Shown here piece after piece: positions 17,922 to 23,983 of a DNA stretch of 64,000 nt. A program made the translations under genes and the position numbers. Position 1 is the stretch's first letter, and every line of letters begins with the position of its first letter. The stretch covers positions 95 through 64,094 of the forward strand of contig JAIORG010000072.1 in assembly GCA_021108255.1 (NCBI GenBank), given 5' to 3'. The notes under the pieces were generated by a model, which was not told the origin of the DNA, did no database searches, and saw only the letters and a program-made list of their open reading frames with translations. Source of the DNA: Anaerolineales bacterium (GTDB taxonomy: Bacteria > Chloroflexota > Anaerolineae > Anaerolineales > UBA11858).

Positions 17922-18037
17922 CTTTAGGCTTTATGAATTTAATAAATGAAGGGCTGAAAAGGTGTGCAAATGTTGGATCGCCCACACCCCTTGCTTTGTA
18001 TTTCCCCCTTCAATCTGTGTAAATCCTGACTCGTCAC

Positions 18038-18352
18038 ATGGGCATTAATCCAGTAAGCAAATTCTCACAGTTAATCAATATTAATTTACCAAAAATTGAA
18101 CCGATCGTTTTTGATGCAGCAATTGCCCAAAAACTGTGTAATCGCATAGATGGTATCCAGTTGCATGCTCATTCCTATTCGCTCATCCATAACCTGACAC
18201 ACGGATCGCTCAAACCAACCGACGTCCTGGGATTTGCTTACCAGCACGAGAAGTTAAAGTCTACGGAAATCGCACAAAAGCTGAAAGAAGTTGATCATCC
18301 CCGGATCAATGCCTTGTTCGACTTCACGAGCATGATCAATGCTTACGAGTAG
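18038..18352 (+). CDS. Hypothetical protein (104 aa)
   Basis: ORF only, with no SD sequence and no motif I recognise. Confidence 0.3.
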   Translation: MGINPVSKFSQLININLPKIEPIVFDAAIAQKLCNRIDGIQLHAHSYSLIHNLTHGSLKPTDVLGFAYQHEKLKSTEIAQKLKEVDHPRINALFDFTSMINAYE

Positions 18353-18373
18353 CCTTTACCTGCCCTAAGAATA

Positions 18374-18823
18374 ATGGCTCCCTATACTCGTCAGGTTCAT
18401 TTAAAGGGCGCAAAAGCGATCAAGGAGGGAAAAGGTTATGGGCAAGCAGGAGTGGTGCAGGGTTCAGTCGAAGATGAAATGCCCTATGCGCGTATGTTGT
18501 ATGAACTGCTGATGCTGGGGGAGACAAAACCACAAGTGATCTGTTTTGTATTGGAGCAAGAGGTGAATTATTATGCCCCAGCTTATCGACGCGCGGATGA
18601 AGGAGAAAATCTGATTATCCCGTTTAGAAAACCCAGCGAAACCCCTTATAATGAAGAAGATGGCGAAAGGATATTACTGAATGAGAGACGCTGGGTGAGC
18701 AATCAGGTAAATTTTATCAAGCGCTTGCTGGCAGAAATGCACTGGTTGGCGACCTTATATTTTGAAATCAATAAAAAGGAGATTTCTCAAAATGGGCAAC
18801 AAAGTTGTTTTAGTCCTTTCTGA
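18374..18823 (+). CDS. Hypothetical protein (149 aa)
   Basis: ORF only. Its 3' end overlaps the next gene by 32 nt in another frame, and I recognise no motif. Confidence 0.3.
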   Translation: MAPYTRQVHLKGAKAIKEGKGYGQAGVVQGSVEDEMPYARMLYELLMLGETKPQVICFVLEQEVNYYAPAYRRADEGENLIIPFRKPSETPYNEEDGERILLNERRWVSNQVNFIKRLLAEMHWLATLYFEINKKEISQNGQQSCFSPF

Positions 18824-19604
18824 CGCCTTGCGCTACGACACGGCCGTAGCTAGTATGGGATTTCTGGGGCATTTAGTCGAGGTCAATAAAGCCAATCTTT
18901 ACAAGGTGATAGGTGAACTGCCTTCCATCTCGCGCCCAATGTATGAAACGGTGCACACCGGGGTGCCAGTCATAGAACACGGGGTGGTCTCCAACCAGGT
19001 GGTGCGTCGCTCCGAAGTGCCCAATATCTTCCAGGCCGCGAGAGATGCTGGAAAAACTACCGCGGCAGCGGCTTATTACTGGTTCTCAGAACTCTACAAC
19101 CGTGCTCCCTTCGACCCGATAGATGACCGTGAAGTGGACGACGAATCCTTGCTTATCCAGCACGGACGCTTCTATGTTGAGGACGCCTACCCCGATGCTG
19201 AGTTATTCGCCATAGCTGGGGCATTGGTACGCAAGTTTGAACCAGAATATTTGCTAGTTCACCCGATGGGGATGGATGATTTCGGACATAAGTACGGCGC
19301 GGATTCCAAAGAGTATCGTATCCACGCCATTCGTCAAGACATGATATTGTCCAATCTGATTCCTGAATGGATGGAGCGCGGCTACAATATCCTCGTTACT
19401 GGCGACCACGGCATGAACGCTGATGGGATGCACGGCGGCACCACTCCTGATGTACGCGAAGTACCACTATTTCTCATTCGCCCCGGTGTGCCCGGAGAAG
19501 GGGATACCGGCGAGATAGTCTCTCATCTGCAGCTTGCGCCAACAGTCTGCAAACTGCTTGGCATTCCCATCCCAGAGACGATGAAACAGCCGTCAATTGT
19601 TTAG
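18792..19604 (+). CDS. Alkaline-phosphatase-superfamily hydrolase (nucleotide pyrophosphatase/phosphodiesterase or PhnA-like)
   Basis: AP-superfamily metal and nucleophile motifs are present: LSDALRYD, PSISRP.....HTG..P..HG, HPMGMDDFGHKYG, GDHGM. AAGGAG lies upstream of ATG 18792. Confidence 0.75.
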   Translation: MGNKVVLVLSDALRYDTAVASMGFLGHLVEVNKANLYKVIGELPSISRPMYETVHTGVPVIEHGVVSNQVVRRSEVPNIFQAARDAGKTTAAAAYYWFSELYNRAPFDPIDDREVDDESLLIQHGRFYVEDAYPDAELFAIAGALVRKFEPEYLLVHPMGMDDFGHKYGADSKEYRIHAIRQDMILSNLIPEWMERGYNILVTGDHGMNADGMHGGTTPDVREVPLFLIRPGVPGEGDTGEIVSHLQLAPTVCKLLGIPIPETMKQPSIV

Positions 19605-19874
19605 GGTAGATTTCGGTAAACCTTAATAAATCAAAAACGAGAATGTCATACAAGATCACCTGCAAACCCCTGCATTGCGTATAAGTCAACGGTGATATCA
19701 CCGCCAACACGGCGGGTCTAGAAGGTTTTATTGAGGACCCAATGCCAGCCTTATTGTTATACCACAAGGAGGAGCAGGCTTGCCGGGATGAACCCTTTGA
19801 GGCGAAAAGCTCGAAATGCAGTAGAACAACATCTTGTTATAAACTAACCCAATAACTATTGAATGGGGAGGAAA

Positions 19875-21134
19875 ATGAAAAACAATGCTCGCACTCACTT
19901 AACCCAAGCCTGGTCCCATTACACTGAACTGATGGCCGAACGAGCGGAGGGGATATATATTTATGCAGCCAACGGACGACGCTACCTTGACTTTTCCTCC
20001 GGCATCGGGGTGATCAATACCGGGCACTGTCATCCGGCCGTGGTTGCGGCCGCCCAAGAACAGGTCGCCAAGATGATCCACGGTCAGATCAACATCGTTT
20101 TTCACCAACCGATGCTGGACCTGGTGAGCGAGTTGCTGACGATCGTACCAAAAAGTCTCGATGGCTTCTTTTTCGCCAACAGTGGTGCCGAGGCAGTCGA
20201 GGCGTCCATCAAACTGGCAAGGCAGGCCACCAATCGGCCCAACATCATTGTCTTCCAGGGAGGATTCCACGGTCGTACTGTGGGCACTATGTCGTTGACA
20301 ACCAGCAATACTATCTACCGGGCCGGCTATGGTCCGCTGATGCCTGGCGTTTTCGTCACGCCGTTTCCTTACGTCTACCGGTATGGCTGGAGTTCGGAGG
20401 ACACGGTGGCTTTCTGCTTGCGGGAGTTGAACTTGCTCCTGTCCACTCAGACAGCGCCCCAGGAGACTGCGGCTATATTGGTCGAACCGGTGCTCGGTGA
20501 GGGTGGGTATGTTGTACCGCCAGTGGGTTTCCTCAAGTCAGTGCGACAGATATGTGATGAACATGGCATCCTTTTAATTGCTGATGAAATCCAGTCTGGA
20601 TTTGGCCGGACCGGCCGCTGGTTTGCCCACCAACGCGACGATTTTATACCCGATATCATGGTCATGGCCAAGGGTCTGGCCTCTGGCTTTCCACTAAGCG
20701 GCATCGCCTATCGGTCACCCTTGATGAACAACGCCAGCCCTGGCAGCCACGGTGGCACCTATGGGGGGAACGCGGTCGCCTGTGCTGCGGCTGCAGCCAC
20801 TGTACGGGTGCTACGTGACCAAGCCCTCGTACAGAACAGCGCCAGCATGGGGGAGTATCTTATCGGGCGATTGCGGGACTTGCAAAGCCGATTCCCAGTC
20901 ATTGGAGATGTCCGGGGATTGGGATTGATGATTGGTGTCGAATTCACCACTGCGGAGGGCCAGCCCGACGGTGCAACAGCCAAGGCAGTTCGGCTTCAGT
21001 GTCTGGATGATGGCTTGATAATGCTCACCTGCGGCACGTTCGCTAACGTCATTCGCTGGATACCACCGCTTATCGTCACCGCCGAGCAGATTGACGAGGC
21101 ATTAGCAATTTTTGAAGACGCGCTAAAAGAGTAA
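19875..21134 (+). CDS. Class III (omega) aminotransferase, GabT-like
   Basis: Class III motifs are present: SGIGVINTGHCHP, NSGAEAVE, FHGRT, DEIQSGFGRTG, MAKGLASG (PLP lysine). GGGGAGG lies upstream of ATG 19875. Confidence 0.9.
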   Translation: MKNNARTHLTQAWSHYTELMAERAEGIYIYAANGRRYLDFSSGIGVINTGHCHPAVVAAAQEQVAKMIHGQINIVFHQPMLDLVSELLTIVPKSLDGFFFANSGAEAVEASIKLARQATNRPNIIVFQGGFHGRTVGTMSLTTSNTIYRAGYGPLMPGVFVTPFPYVYRYGWSSEDTVAFCLRELNLLLSTQTAPQETAAILVEPVLGEGGYVVPPVGFLKSVRQICDEHGILLIADEIQSGFGRTGRWFAHQRDDFIPDIMVMAKGLASGFPLSGIAYRSPLMNNASPGSHGGTYGGNAVACAAAAATVRVLRDQALVQNSASMGEYLIGRLRDLQSRFPVIGDVRGLGLMIGVEFTTAEGQPDGATAKAVRLQCLDDGLIMLTCGTFANVIRWIPPLIVTAEQIDEALAIFEDALKE

Positions 21135-21162
21135 TAATATTTACAGACTTGGAGCTGATCTT

Positions 21163-22863
21163 GTGAACATTTGGCGAATCAACACCCGCACCCAAACCCT
21201 GACCATCCAGCCCACCCCTGAGTCGTGGCAACATCTCGGAGGACGTGGTTTGCTGGCGCGCATCCTCGTAGATGAAGTCCCCGCGACTTGCGAACCGCTT
21301 GGAGCGAAAAATAAGCTCATCTTTGCCCCTGGCTTGATGGTTGGACACCGACTCTCTTCCTGTGATCGCATCTCGATTGGTGGCAAATCCCCGCTCACAG
21401 GCGGCGTGAAAGAATCCAACGCAGGCGGCACGACCGGGTTGGCAATTACACATCTTGGCATCAAAGCGCTCATACTCGAAGACAAGCCCGAAAATGATGA
21501 GTGGCAAATTTTGCGTCTTTCTGCTGATGGCGCAACCTTCGACCCTGCGGGCGAGCTGTTCGGGCGGGGTGTCTTTGAAACTGCCCCTCTCCTGCTCGAA
21601 AAATATGGCAAAAAAAATGCCATCGCGCTAATCGGGCAAGGCGGTGAGATGGAATTGCGCGCGGCTGGCATCCAAAATCTCGATAAAGATCTCACCCCCT
21701 CGCGCATCGCGGCGCGCGGCGGACTCGGTGCGCTGATGGGATCGAAACGTATCAAAGCCATCGTGATTGATTTAAGCGGCGGCGCAAAACCGCCTATTGC
21801 CGATCAACCCGCCTTCCGTGCGGCACAAAATACCTATTCAAAATCACTCATGGAGAGCCCGCAAATAGCCACATATCGCGATTTCGGCACCGCCGCCATG
21901 ACTAATATGACCAACCATTTCGGCTGTCTGCCAACGCGCGGCTTTTCCGAAGGTCAGTTTGAAGGCGCAGAAAGAATCGGCGGCGAAAATATGCGCGAAA
22001 CCCTGTTGGCGCGCGGTGGCGAGAGCAACCCTTCCCACTCTTGCATGCCCGGCTGCACCATCCAATGCTCTAATGTCTACGGCGGCGAAGATGGCAAAAC
22101 CCTCGTCTCGCCCCTCGAATATGAAACCATCGGCTTGCTGGGATCGAATCTTGGCATTGACGATCTGGACGTAATCGCCCGCCTGAGTTGGGAAATCAGT
22201 GATCTGGGATTGGACACGATTGAAGTCGGTGCAGCTCTGGGAGTGGCAGCCCAAGCTGGTTTATTGGACTGGGGCGACGGTGAGCGAGCGAGTGAACTTG
22301 TTTCCGAGATCCGAGTAGGTACACCGCTCGGACGGATTCTCGGTAACGGTGCCGCGACAACGGGCAAAGTCCTCGGCGTGGAACGTGTCCCTGTCACCAA
22401 AGGTCAGGCGATGCCCGCCTATGATCCGCGTGCCATCAAGGGGACGGGTGTCACCTACGCCACCTCCCCGCAGGGAGCAGACCACACCTGCGGACTGACG
22501 ATTCGCGCCAAGATCAAGCATACCGACCCCGAAGGGCAAGCTGATATCTCGCGTGGCGGACAAATTAGCATGGCTGGATACGACACTCTCGGCGTGTGCA
22601 TCTTCGCGGGTTTCGGCTTTGCGACTGTACCTGAAACAATCCCTACTCTGCTCAACGCCCGCTACGGCTGGGATGTGGATGAAACTATTTTACAAGAACT
22701 GGGACGCGAAACTCTCAATCTGGAGCGCGAATTCAACAAAAGGGCAGGCTTCACCGTCGCCGATGACCGCCTCCCAGAATGGATGACGCGTGAGCCAGTT
22801 GCACCCACAAATGAGGTTTTCGATGTATCGGAAGAAGATTTGGATAATGTCTTTAATTGGTAA
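21163..22863 (+). CDS. aor: Aldehyde:ferredoxin oxidoreductase family (tungstopterin enzyme)
   Basis: AOR N-terminal domain (LGGRGL, NKLIFAPG, GKSPLTGG), a Cys cluster SCMPGCTIQC plus a distal DTLGVCIF, and GADH. GTG start lies 28 nt after the aminotransferase stop. Confidence 0.9.
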   Translation: MNIWRINTRTQTLTIQPTPESWQHLGGRGLLARILVDEVPATCEPLGAKNKLIFAPGLMVGHRLSSCDRISIGGKSPLTGGVKESNAGGTTGLAITHLGIKALILEDKPENDEWQILRLSADGATFDPAGELFGRGVFETAPLLLEKYGKKNAIALIGQGGEMELRAAGIQNLDKDLTPSRIAARGGLGALMGSKRIKAIVIDLSGGAKPPIADQPAFRAAQNTYSKSLMESPQIATYRDFGTAAMTNMTNHFGCLPTRGFSEGQFEGAERIGGENMRETLLARGGESNPSHSCMPGCTIQCSNVYGGEDGKTLVSPLEYETIGLLGSNLGIDDLDVIARLSWEISDLGLDTIEVGAALGVAAQAGLLDWGDGERASELVSEIRVGTPLGRILGNGAATTGKVLGVERVPVTKGQAMPAYDPRAIKGTGVTYATSPQGADHTCGLTIRAKIKHTDPEGQADISRGGQISMAGYDTLGVCIFAGFGFATVPETIPTLLNARYGWDVDETILQELGRETLNLEREFNKRAGFTVADDRLPEWMTREPVAPTNEVFDVSEEDLDNVFNW

Positions 22864-23073
22864 ATCAGGAATCAGTAGACCAGTTAGACCTAATCCCTAA
22901 TTACCTAATCAACTTAATAAATGTAGAAACTCTATGACTGTTCCGCAGTATGGCTGAAACCGATCTTTCCCAGTCATGTCTGGAGCTATTATTTTTAATT
23001 GAGCACACAAACCCTTTTTTGAGAAAGGTTTATTCAGGAATTGGTGGCGTAGTGATTTATAAAAACAATCGAC

Positions 23074-23102
23074 TTGAATTTCTACGCCACCCCAGATAGA
23101 AT
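23074..23102 (+). promoter_or_regulatory. Candidate promoter of degV
   Basis: TTGAAT (23074-23079), a 17-nt spacer, then TAGAAT (23097-23102). It is partly embedded in a 10-bp-stem hairpin (23043-23091). Confidence 0.3.
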
Positions 23103-23128
23103 AAAGCAATTAAACAAGAGGAGAATCT

Positions 23129-23983
23129 ATGAAACACAAAATAGCCTTGATTACGGACAGCACCTGCGACCTGTCTCTAAATTACAGGAAACAATACGAT
23201 ATTGAAGTTGTCCCCTTGACGATTATTTGGGGGGAGGAGCAATTTCGTGATGGAGTGGATCTGGCACCGGAAGATTTTTACCGGCGGTTGGAAACAGATC
23301 AAGTTATTCCCACTACCTCCCAGCCTACACCACAAGAGATGGTCCAGGTATATGAAAAAGCAAAAAAGAAAGGCGCGGAAGAAATCGTGATTCTCACCAT
23401 CAGCAGCGCTATGAGCGGCACGCACGAATCCGCAAAAAAAGCTGCTGAGCTGGTGGATATTCCAGTCCATGTCCAGGATTCTAAATCCAATACCATGAGC
23501 TTGGGCTGGCAGGTATTGGCCGCCGCCCGAGCCCGCGAAGCCGGGGGAGACGTTCAGGCGATGGTTACTGCCGCAAAACAGGCGCGTGACAACATGGTCT
23601 TAATGATCAGCCTGGACACCTTGAAATTCCTGCACAAAGGGGGGCGTATCGGCGGGGCCAGTCATTTTATTGGTACCCTGTTGAATTTGAAACCGCAAAT
23701 TACGGTCAATCACCAAAGCGGAGAAGTGGAAGGTGGCCGCCGATCACGGACTAGAAAAAAAGCGCTGATAGATCTTTATTCTGATTTTTTTGCCCAGATT
23801 GATTCCAGTAAAAGCCTCCGGGTCGCCGTTCTTCATAACGCTGCCCTTGAAGAGGCGGAAGAGATCGCAAACCGGATTCAGCAAGAGTTCCATCCTGAGG
23901 AACTTGTCCTCGGCTTTGTCTCCCCGGTACTGGGAGTGCATACAGGACCCGGGGCAGTTGCGATTTGCGGCTACACAGAATAA
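23129..23983 (+). CDS. DegV-family fatty-acid-binding protein
   Basis: DegV motifs IALITDSTCDL, TSQP, ISSAMSGT and LKFLHKGGRIG are present. Confidence 0.9.
   Translation: MKHKIALITDSTCDLSLNYRKQYDIEVVPLTIIWGEEQFRDGVDLAPEDFYRRLETDQVIPTTSQPTPQEMVQVYEKAKKKGAEEIVILTISSAMSGTHESAKKAAELVDIPVHVQDSKSNTMSLGWQVLAAARAREAGGDVQAMVTAAKQARDNMVLMISLDTLKFLHKGGRIGGASHFIGTLLNLKPQITVNHQSGEVEGGRRSRTRKKALIDLYSDFFAQIDSSKSLRVAVLHNAALEEAEEIANRIQQEFHPEELVLGFVSPVLGVHTGPGAVAICGYTE

Follow-up and report, generated by a model that had tools for sequence, protein, structure and literature searches.

The window analysed in this study is a stretch of 64,000 nucleotides from an Anaerolineales bacterium (GCA_021108255.1, contig JAIORG010000072.1, positions 95 to 64,094 of the forward strand). 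Its source genome, G000, comprises 2.98 Mb in 298 contigs, is 93.7% complete and has a GC content of 45.7%. Genes were called from an open reading frame (ORF) listing together with Pfam and NCBIfam scans. Three adjacent genes of the same orientation are the subject of this report: a gene of the AP superfamily (AP), a class III aminotransferase gene (AT) and a gene of the aldehyde:ferredoxin oxidoreductase (AOR) family.

18792 to 19604, forward strand: AP, AP-superfamily gene, ATG start, 270 aa, PF01663 (E 1.6e-15)
19863 to 21134, forward strand: AT, GabT/PuuE-like class III aminotransferase gene, 423 aa, PF00202 (E 4.5e-131, 437.7 bits)
21163 to 22863, forward strand: AOR, AOR-family oxidoreductase gene of the short type, GTG start, 566 aa, PF02730 and PF01314

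AP and AT are separated by 258 nt, which corrects the 270 nt given in a first-pass annotation of this DNA; the 28 nt that it gave between AT and AOR is also the measured value, and GGAG lies 8 nt upstream of the GTG start of AOR. We found that AT-AOR is a horizontally acquired, recombinant gene pair, probably a two-gene operon, and that AP is a resident backbone gene with no apparent functional tie to its right-hand neighbours.

In G016, a genome of the same genus (Tex 86% identical), AP is 86% identical and AT-AOR is absent. The gene order there is usp, a 356-aa TIM-barrel gene of the AP_endonuc_2 family, AP, an octopine-dehydrogenase-like gene, a GHMP kinase gene, a DHH protein gene, degV and tex. 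DNA homology between G016 and the window stops at the stop codon of AP (19605) and restarts at 23063; therefore, the segment 19606-23062 replaces a different three-gene cassette. The first part of this segment, window 19734-21100, shows 92% DNA identity to locus L128 (GCA_048634895.1). At L128, a LarAH6-type malate-racemase gene (larA), this AT and phosphate genes come after the Opp-Usp-AP backbone, with no AOR, and window 18801-19737 matches L128 5650-6586 at 76.6% (blastn). The LarA protein of L128 exceeds the NF052593 cut-off of 500, with a score of 534.9. When it was used in tblastn, its residues 399-415 matched window 19735-19785 at 82%; locus L058 retains the last 67 larA codons (94%).

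The second part, window 21022-22862, shows 77% DNA identity to the AT1-AOR1 genes of loci L062 and L069, which belong to the Chloroflexota gene cluster described below, and AOR is 85% identical at the protein level. Along most of the AT protein, however, identity to the AT1 of these loci is only 56%. Over the final 40 residues of AT, the value falls to 0.72 for L128 but reaches 0.80 for L062; elsewhere in the protein, identity to L062 is 0.38-0.75 (mostly 0.45-0.62). From the homology limits and this switch of identity, the breakpoint therefore lies in the 3' end of AT, at about 21022-21100. By these alignments AT is chimeric, with about the first 385 codons from a larA-linked AT lineage and the last 35 or so from the AT1 lineage. 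The junctions and remnants in and around the segment are as follows.

19605 to 19733, forward strand: spacer 3' of AP, collinear with the AP-larA spacer of L128 and with L060, not with G016
19735 to 19785, forward strand: remnant of a larA-type (malate-racemase family) gene, its last 17 codons, left by deletion (tblastn)
21022 to 21100, forward strand: recombination breakpoint zone within the AT 3' end, placed by blastn limits and the identity profile
22864 to 23062, forward strand: AT-rich scar between AOR and the degV promoter region, placed by comparison with L058, L060 and G016

The nearest relatives of the window AOR are those of L058 (93-94% identical) and L060 (91%). At both loci AOR is followed by a 73-aa AT2 fragment, 54-57% identical to the AT2 of the full cluster at L067, and by a 55-62-nt duplicate of the 3' end of AP. 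L058 additionally carries after AOR a GATase gene, what is left of an rve transposase, and the 3'-terminal part of the DHH gene that was displaced. In the window, 65 nt of the scar (22930-22994) match L058 4906-4970 at 92%, just before rve, and the other traces after AOR are lost. Since the junctions recur in L058 and L060, which were assembled independently, a chimeric contig is unlikely.

Synonymous divergence (dS) is far lower in the cassette genes than in the backbone genes. Between the window and L058, dS is 0.10 for AT and 0.25 for AOR, against 0.47 for degV and 0.46 for tex; between the window and L060, it is 0.21 for AT and 0.35 for AOR, against 0.66 for the backbone gene AP; and between the window and L128, it is 0.22 for AT against 1.70 for AP. 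The AORs of the window and of genome G047 (L069) share 85% identity, yet the Tex of G047 is only 56% identical. Same-genus genomes with Tex identities of 61-89% have AOR orthologues that are only 63-68% identical. In a quick maximum-likelihood tree of AOR with SH-aLRT support, the window, L058 and L060 sequences (SH-aLRT 99) are placed inside a clade with L062/L069, L071 and L064 (SH-aLRT 99), apart from three separate groups of same-genus AORs. Both AT and AOR are intact and have been under purifying selection since they were joined (dN/dS 0.12-0.15).

The following course of events is the most likely. An ancestor of the lineage would have received a larA-AT unit from a GC-richer Anaerolineales relative, after which recombination inside the 3' end of AT would have joined AT to AOR1 and the start of AT2 from the Chloroflexota cluster. 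The incoming segment probably began within AT1, so that one GabT-like AT would have displaced another with the AT-AOR order kept. Later deletions would have taken out larA, the AT2 fragment and the insertion sequence remnant.

The first-pass annotation had also described a step in base composition at these genes from hand counts (53-65% GC against 38-48% in the flanks). Computation of GC and of GC at third codon positions (GC3) over the whole genome bore out the step, although it is smaller than the hand counts suggested, at about 10 points. This is far beyond the spread of the genome (standard deviation of ORF GC, 0.039). GC is 52.5% in AP, 55.7% in AT and 55.8% in AOR, against 43.7% in usp, 50.4% in degV, 48.9% in tex, 43.4% in the spacer upstream of AT and 36.6% in that downstream of AOR. 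The 3-kb interval over AT-AOR (start C1:19501) is the second GC-richest among 1578 in the genome, and among 2110 ORFs of at least 150 aa, AOR and AT rank 8th and 10th in GC (both in the top 0.5%) and 62nd and 12th in GC3, respectively.

Such a step could have arisen without foreign DNA, from the amino-acid composition or the high expression of these enzyme genes. The GC of the first and second codon positions of AT and AOR is somewhat raised too, and AP is richer in GC than its neighbours in every relative. However, GC3 is also raised (0.63 in AT and 0.58 in AOR, and 0.58 in AP, against a genome mean of 0.458), and synteny, dS and the tree all point to import. Since the five other AOR-family genes of G000 (46.6-52.3% GC) and the ribosomal-operon ORFs on contig C105 (GC3 0.36-0.49) are ordinary, the step is neither a family trait nor an expression trait. 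This explanation, which we regard as having hardly any chance of being correct, is already refuted for AT-AOR; composition or expression is likely the reason for the milder GC excess of AP. The donor-like loci are richer in GC (59.3% in the AT of L128, about 59% over the L128 locus, 59.1% in the AOR1 of L062 and 60.5% in that of L067). The GC step marks two imported pieces, not a single block of three genes.

AP belongs to a backbone that exists without AT-AOR. The order of Opp-type ABC, Usp, (TIM-barrel), AP, (mevalonate-kinase-like GHMP) and DHH genes is found without AT-AOR in G016 and L131, and in its wider form (Opp-type ABC, Usp, AP, GHMP kinase, DHH) it recurs in L131/L132 at 77% AP identity. 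AP without AT-AOR is also found in L128, and other right-hand neighbours of AP occur as well. AP adjoins AT-AOR only in the own lineage of the window (L060). No AP gene was seen near the orthologous AOR at 14 further loci from relatives, nor in the full parent clusters. The TIM-barrel gene 5' of AP, which is a single 356-aa ORF with PF01261 in G016 (L052:1033-2103) and L060, is broken in the window, which lacks about 311 nt of it (window 18249/18242 against L052 1244/1555).

18038 to 18823, forward strand: broken AP_endonuc_2 (xylose-isomerase-like TIM barrel) gene, ORFs of 104 and 149 aa, resident backbone

As for the family of AP, no PhnA model was among its NCBIfam matches (E 0.001). In a profile search of the PDB, iPGM (25.9 bits), NPP (25.0) and PhnA (3t02, 22.6) scored alike, and by sequence AP is equally distant from the three. 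The residues D11, S47, D162, D205, H206 and H214 are at least 90% conserved among 45 diverse homologues, and the ligands of the bimetal site as well as a Ser at the nucleophile position are kept. An AF2 model built from the 45-sequence alignment of diverse representatives reached pLDDT 98, against 45.6 with 17 close homologues. The best folds matching this model were Xanthomonas NPP and ENPPs (2gsn/7n1s; TM 0.77-0.78, E 3e-13). The top 50 matches were mostly NPP/ENPP with some sulfatases and one phosphonate monoester hydrolase, and PhnA was absent from them. Judging from this model, AP is predicted to be a minimal NPP-like metallo-phosphoesterase. It shares with Xanthomonas NPP and the ENPPs the fold, the conserved bimetal ligands and the Ser nucleophile; it differs from them in its length (270 aa against about 380), in an identity of 14% and in having no secretion or substrate signal.

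These results bear on the idea, put forward in the first-pass annotation, that the trio is an analogue of the PhnW-PhnY-PhnA route for 2-aminoethylphosphonate built from non-orthologous parts. The AP fold can support C-P hydrolysis, as in PhnA. The three genes are adjacent and co-oriented in both the window and L060, and AT distantly resembles PbfA, although below the cut-off (290 against 525 bits). However, the idea fails on both the linkage and the family placement of AP, which lives in its backbone without AT-AOR and beside other right-hand genes, is missing from the other AOR loci, and does not lie nearer to PhnA than to either NPP or iPGM. In addition, a larA remnant lies in the 258-nt spacer between AP and AT, and AT carries GabT residues of the dicarboxylate type. 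Two findings had been named in advance as speaking against the idea, a grouping of AP with pyrophosphatases and a lack of linkage between AT and AOR in other genomes; AP does group with pyrophosphatases, and the linkage of AT and AOR holds elsewhere. The phosphonate reading is already largely refuted, and we consider it extremely improbable.

A separate observation concerns the cassette that AT-AOR displaced. Cassettes of this type, at L052:3096-6457 (G016) and L131:7880-11378, consist of an octopine-dehydrogenase-like or MFS gene, a GHMP kinase gene and a gene for a DHH/RecJ-like protein; the kinase scores 161.3 bits against a mevalonate-kinase cut-off of 163.05. The small AP-family gene is always immediately upstream of the kinase and DHH cassette at these two loci.

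The cluster from which the AOR part derives is carried in full by L062, L067, L069 and L072. An AsnC/Lrp regulator comes first, followed by an importer made up of a PotA-like ATPase that carries TOBE_2, two permeases and a binding protein resembling PotD and PotF (238 and 214 bits). Next come an aldehyde dehydrogenase (ALDH) resembling aminobutyraldehyde dehydrogenase, a DAO-type FAD oxidase, the GabT-like AT1 and AOR1 (565-566 aa). It ends with AT2, which is HemL/GntE-like (578 for NF041362, whose cut-off is 525), AOR2 (617-628 aa) and a saccharopine-dehydrogenase-like gene (SacDH); in some cases a further ALDH precedes SacDH. The simplest reading of this cluster is import of a polyamine or diamine followed by two rounds of transamination and aldehyde oxidation, of which AT1-AOR1 would be the omega-amino-acid round. 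The window AOR is an orthologue of AOR1, 73-85% identical and with the same C-x3-C-x3-C motif, and the 3' end of AT and the lost AT2 fragment derive from such a cluster. In contrast to the full cluster, the window keeps two of about 12 genes, and the body of its AT is 56% identical to AT1.

Pairing of AT with AOR1 recurs. Of 32 informative loci, about 16 have an AT beside AOR1, in the arrangements AT-AOR1, AT-AT-AOR1, AT-AOR2-AOR1 and AOR1-AT. At L130, a 73%-identical AT is found in an AT-ThiS-AOR unit whose AOR is from another clade. An AOR-x-AT arrangement in a paralogous clade (41% identical; Leptofilum/Promineifilaceae, L107 and similar loci), with ClpS between the two genes and DHDPS/HAD genes after them, was not counted as linkage.

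Two further gene arrangements were observed. In L022, L024 and L030 (genomes G024, G002 and G020), AT-AOR1 is followed by three tandem saccharopine-dehydrogenase-like paralogues that are 26-70% identical to the L067 SacDH, another recurrent form of amine cluster. In L128:6657-9269, L129 and L058:1-1554, a gene for a LarAH6-type nickel-pincer malate racemase is paired with a GabT-like AT; this larA-paired AT is 91-97% identical to the window AT and was seen in at least three assemblies.

The best solved relatives of AT are PuuE and GabT (E 1e-95 to 5e-92). In E. coli GabT, the substrate residues are I50, R141, E211, V241, Q242, T297 and R398, with roles as in structure 1SFF and the mutants 1SZK, 1SZS and 1SZU. 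They align with I48, R138, E213, I243, Q244, T299 and R398 of the window AT, and K270 aligns with K268 of GabT, the pyridoxal phosphate lysine. The key residues are kept also in the AT of L128 and in the AT1 of full clusters (L062/L067, with V at 243).

AOR has the two domains AFOR_N (PF02730, E 2.3e-53) and AFOR_C (PF01314, E 7.3e-72); the AFOR_C match stops at 346/385, as it does across the whole clade of 565-580 aa. In Pyrococcus furiosus AOR, C288, C291, C295 and C494 hold the [4Fe-4S] cluster, and E313 and H448 lie beside the metal. Alignment with 9mqx gave SCMPGCTIQC, GVC, PLEYE and GADH, so that the four cluster cysteines and the Glu and His are kept. The window AOR is thus like P. furiosus AOR (1AOR), 9MQX and Aromatoleum AOR (8C0Z) in its two AFOR domains, metal-site Glu/His and four cysteines. 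It differs from them in being about 40 residues shorter, in an identity of about 35% or less, and in the spacing C-x3-C-x3-C instead of C-x2-C-x3-C. This spacing and the shorter C-terminus are typical of a large Chloroflexota clade. A further difference is that no AorA/AorC-type subunit gene or MoaD gene is adjacent to AOR in the window.

From these features we infer a substrate and a direction for the pair. The GabT-like AT would move the amino group of a carboxylate-bearing omega-amino acid of the 4-aminobutyrate (GABA) or 5-aminovalerate type to 2-oxoglutarate, and AOR would oxidise the resulting semialdehyde to the dicarboxylate, succinate or glutarate, with reduction of ferredoxin. The pair would then be a GabT-GabD system with a pterin enzyme taking the place of the NAD(P) dehydrogenase. 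We consider it fairly probable that the locus is to be read in this way as a whole, with a resident NPP-like AP beside an imported recombinant AT-AOR whose role is the conversion of an omega-amino acid to a dicarboxylate. The general suggestion of the first-pass annotation that AT-AOR is a module from an amine or amino acid through an aldehyde to an acid appears sound at the sequence level, given the recurrent linkage, the pair at L130 and the purifying selection. A wider proposal is possible and is offered tentatively: the short C-x3-C-x3-C clade of AOR may be a dedicated semialdehyde:ferredoxin oxidoreductase and, together with a GabT-like AT, may form a portable, self-sufficient ferredoxin-linked GABA shunt that moves among Anaerolineales by recombination within the AT gene.

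Compared with known systems, AT-AOR resembles the pair of GabT/PuuE and GabD/Sad of E. coli, the end of the PatA-PatD-GabT-GabD route, in the residues of AT and in the order of an aminotransferase and then an aldehyde-oxidising enzyme. The parent cluster, with its Pot-type importer and ALDHs resembling aminobutyraldehyde dehydrogenase, is likewise similar to the putrescine transaminase route of E. coli. The difference from GabT-GabD is that the second enzyme is predicted to be a ferredoxin-reducing AOR with pterin and [4Fe-4S], not an NAD(P)-dependent enzyme of the ALDH superfamily. The anaerobic phenylalanine route of Aromatoleum aromaticum (reference quoted in PMC12041015; PMC6365974) proceeds by an aminotransferase and a decarboxylase, after which AOR and an NAD-dependent aldehyde dehydrogenase act side by side. 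That route, too, first removes the amino group and then oxidises an aldehyde, and it combines a tungsten AOR with an ALDH as the parent cluster does; it differs in that the aldehyde there arises by decarboxylation of a 2-oxo acid and the aminotransferase is of another class, whereas direct omega-transamination is predicted here. AT-AOR is a truncated, recombinant and horizontally moved remnant of an amine-catabolic cluster and, in its predicted role, a ferredoxin-linked variant of the GabT-GabD step.

Several points weigh against this role. In contrast to E. coli GabT, the window AT is below every cut-off of the curated NCBIfam GABA-aminotransferase equivalogs (413 against 724, and 410.6 against 506.65, for the best of these models), so that its substrate assignment is provisional. 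The best NCBIfam model overall, PRK08117, also falls below its cut-off (538.6 against 574), and the assignment as an aminotransferase is itself uncertain, because GabT-like scaffolds include racemases and epimerases. When the L067 cluster proteins were used as tblastn queries (E 1e-20), no relative of the binding protein, ALDH, DAO-type oxidase or SacDH and no close orthologue of AT2 or AOR2 (best matches 30% and 38% identical) was found in G000; the only close matches were to AT1 and AOR1, both at the window. A glutamate decarboxylase was not found in G000 either, and therefore neither a substrate source nor an importer is evident. A scan of 19400-23300 for promoters and terminators found sites no more often than in shuffled sequence, and none in the AP-AT spacer. 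The supply of the AOR cofactor, described below, is the most serious difficulty.

The origin of AT and the scatter of AOR1 also tell against the predicted role, and they favour the view that AT and AOR are accidental neighbours, joined by recombination but working independently. In that case AT could serve the amino-acid or 2-hydroxy/2-oxo-acid route of the larA-AT pair, and AOR could be a broad aldehyde scavenger. The AT body does stem from a larA-AT context without AOR, and its native substrate may differ from that of AOR1. No AT adjoins about half of the AOR1 orthologues; isochorismatase, ROK or ThiS genes are the neighbours of some of these. Five further AOR-family genes are present in G000, and characterised AORs are broad in substrate (abstract of PMC6365974). 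Nevertheless, the incoming segment appears to have started in AT1, so that one GabT-like AT was swapped for another with the order kept, and the substrate residues are all common to both AT lineages. The gap of 28 nt with a ribosome-binding site, the purifying selection on both genes since the join, and the position of the 73%-identical AT relative of L130, itself beside an AOR, also speak for a working pair. We therefore regard accidental neighbourhood as unlikely.

The direction of the pair could also be reductive, with AOR reducing a dicarboxylate at the expense of ferredoxin and AT aminating the semialdehyde, for biosynthesis or as an electron sink. Transaminases are reversible. AORs are reversible too and reduce acids in acetogens, according to the abstract of PMC12727526. 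However, the PotD/PotF importer, the Lrp/AsnC regulator and the NAD-type ALDHs of the parent cluster make up a catabolic system, and no downstream consumer of the amino acid is found within the window. The reductive direction is thus quite improbable, and oxidation of an omega-amino acid remains the reading that we prefer.

If AT and AOR are indeed coupled, anaerobic Chloroflexota would oxidise amine-derived aldehydes with a ferredoxin-reducing pterin enzyme and not with an NAD(P) dehydrogenase. The low-potential electrons from the breakdown of amino acids and polyamines would then be kept for making hydrogen or for energy conservation, and a function could be given to a large clade of tungsten-containing oxidoreductases (WOR) that has no known role so far; according to the abstract of PMC13328260, only 5 of 92 WOR clades have a known physiological role. 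Our literature search found no paper joining aldehyde ferredoxin oxidoreductase with putrescine, an aminotransferase and a gene cluster, and no published description of a ferredoxin-linked polyamine or amine cluster of anaerobic Chloroflexota. A paper on Anaerolineae that mentions both enzymes draws no link between them, and the main text of a 2026 classification of WOR does not mention aminotransferases, Chloroflexi or polyamines. The window illustrates a mechanism of spread, in which a two-gene piece of a big cluster was grafted by intragenic recombination onto a different aminotransferase and the grafted AT-AOR then replaced a resident cassette. With the phosphonate idea removed as a false lead, the interest of the locus lies mainly in this clear mechanism and in the puzzle of the cofactor.

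Besides six AOR-family genes, among them the window AOR, G000 has MoeA in two copies and a MoeB-like gene for a ThiF-rhodanese protein. MoaA (C-domain), MoaC, MoaE, WtpA and ModA were not found above cut-off in the genome, which is 93.7% complete; TupA was not searched for. A ModA-like match on contig C8 was rejected, since it resembles a sulfate/thiosulfate binding protein more closely and adjoins PstB. Among 25 same-genus genomes, MoaA was found in 9 and MoaC in 13, and both are missing in 12, including three that are 96% complete and the nearest kin of the window. All of these 12 genomes carry 2-9 AOR-family matches. This sharpens the question of how AOR obtains its cofactor, because half of an AOR-rich genus seems to be without the first enzymes of pterin synthesis. 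Scavenging of a pterin precursor could make up for the missing Moa enzymes.

Some minor features of the locus were also noted. An Rfam scan of 18000-23300 gave two chance-level matches only, and no known riboswitch or leader was found 5' of AT. In the spacer downstream of AP that is common to L060 and L128, a palindrome, GGTGATATCACC, is located at window 19691-19717. Its counterparts in L060 and L128 are AGTGACATCACC and AGTGGCGTCACC, and a small conserved hairpin, CCGCC-AACAC-GGCGG, then follows. The palindrome belongs to the AP side of the junction and not to the imported AT-AOR. Elsewhere in G000, at L032:6485-10377 (contig C55), a short AOR paralogue, 46% identical to the window AOR, is located about 1 kb downstream of a MoeB-like gene with ThiF and rhodanese domains, and two small ORFs without family matches lie between the two genes.

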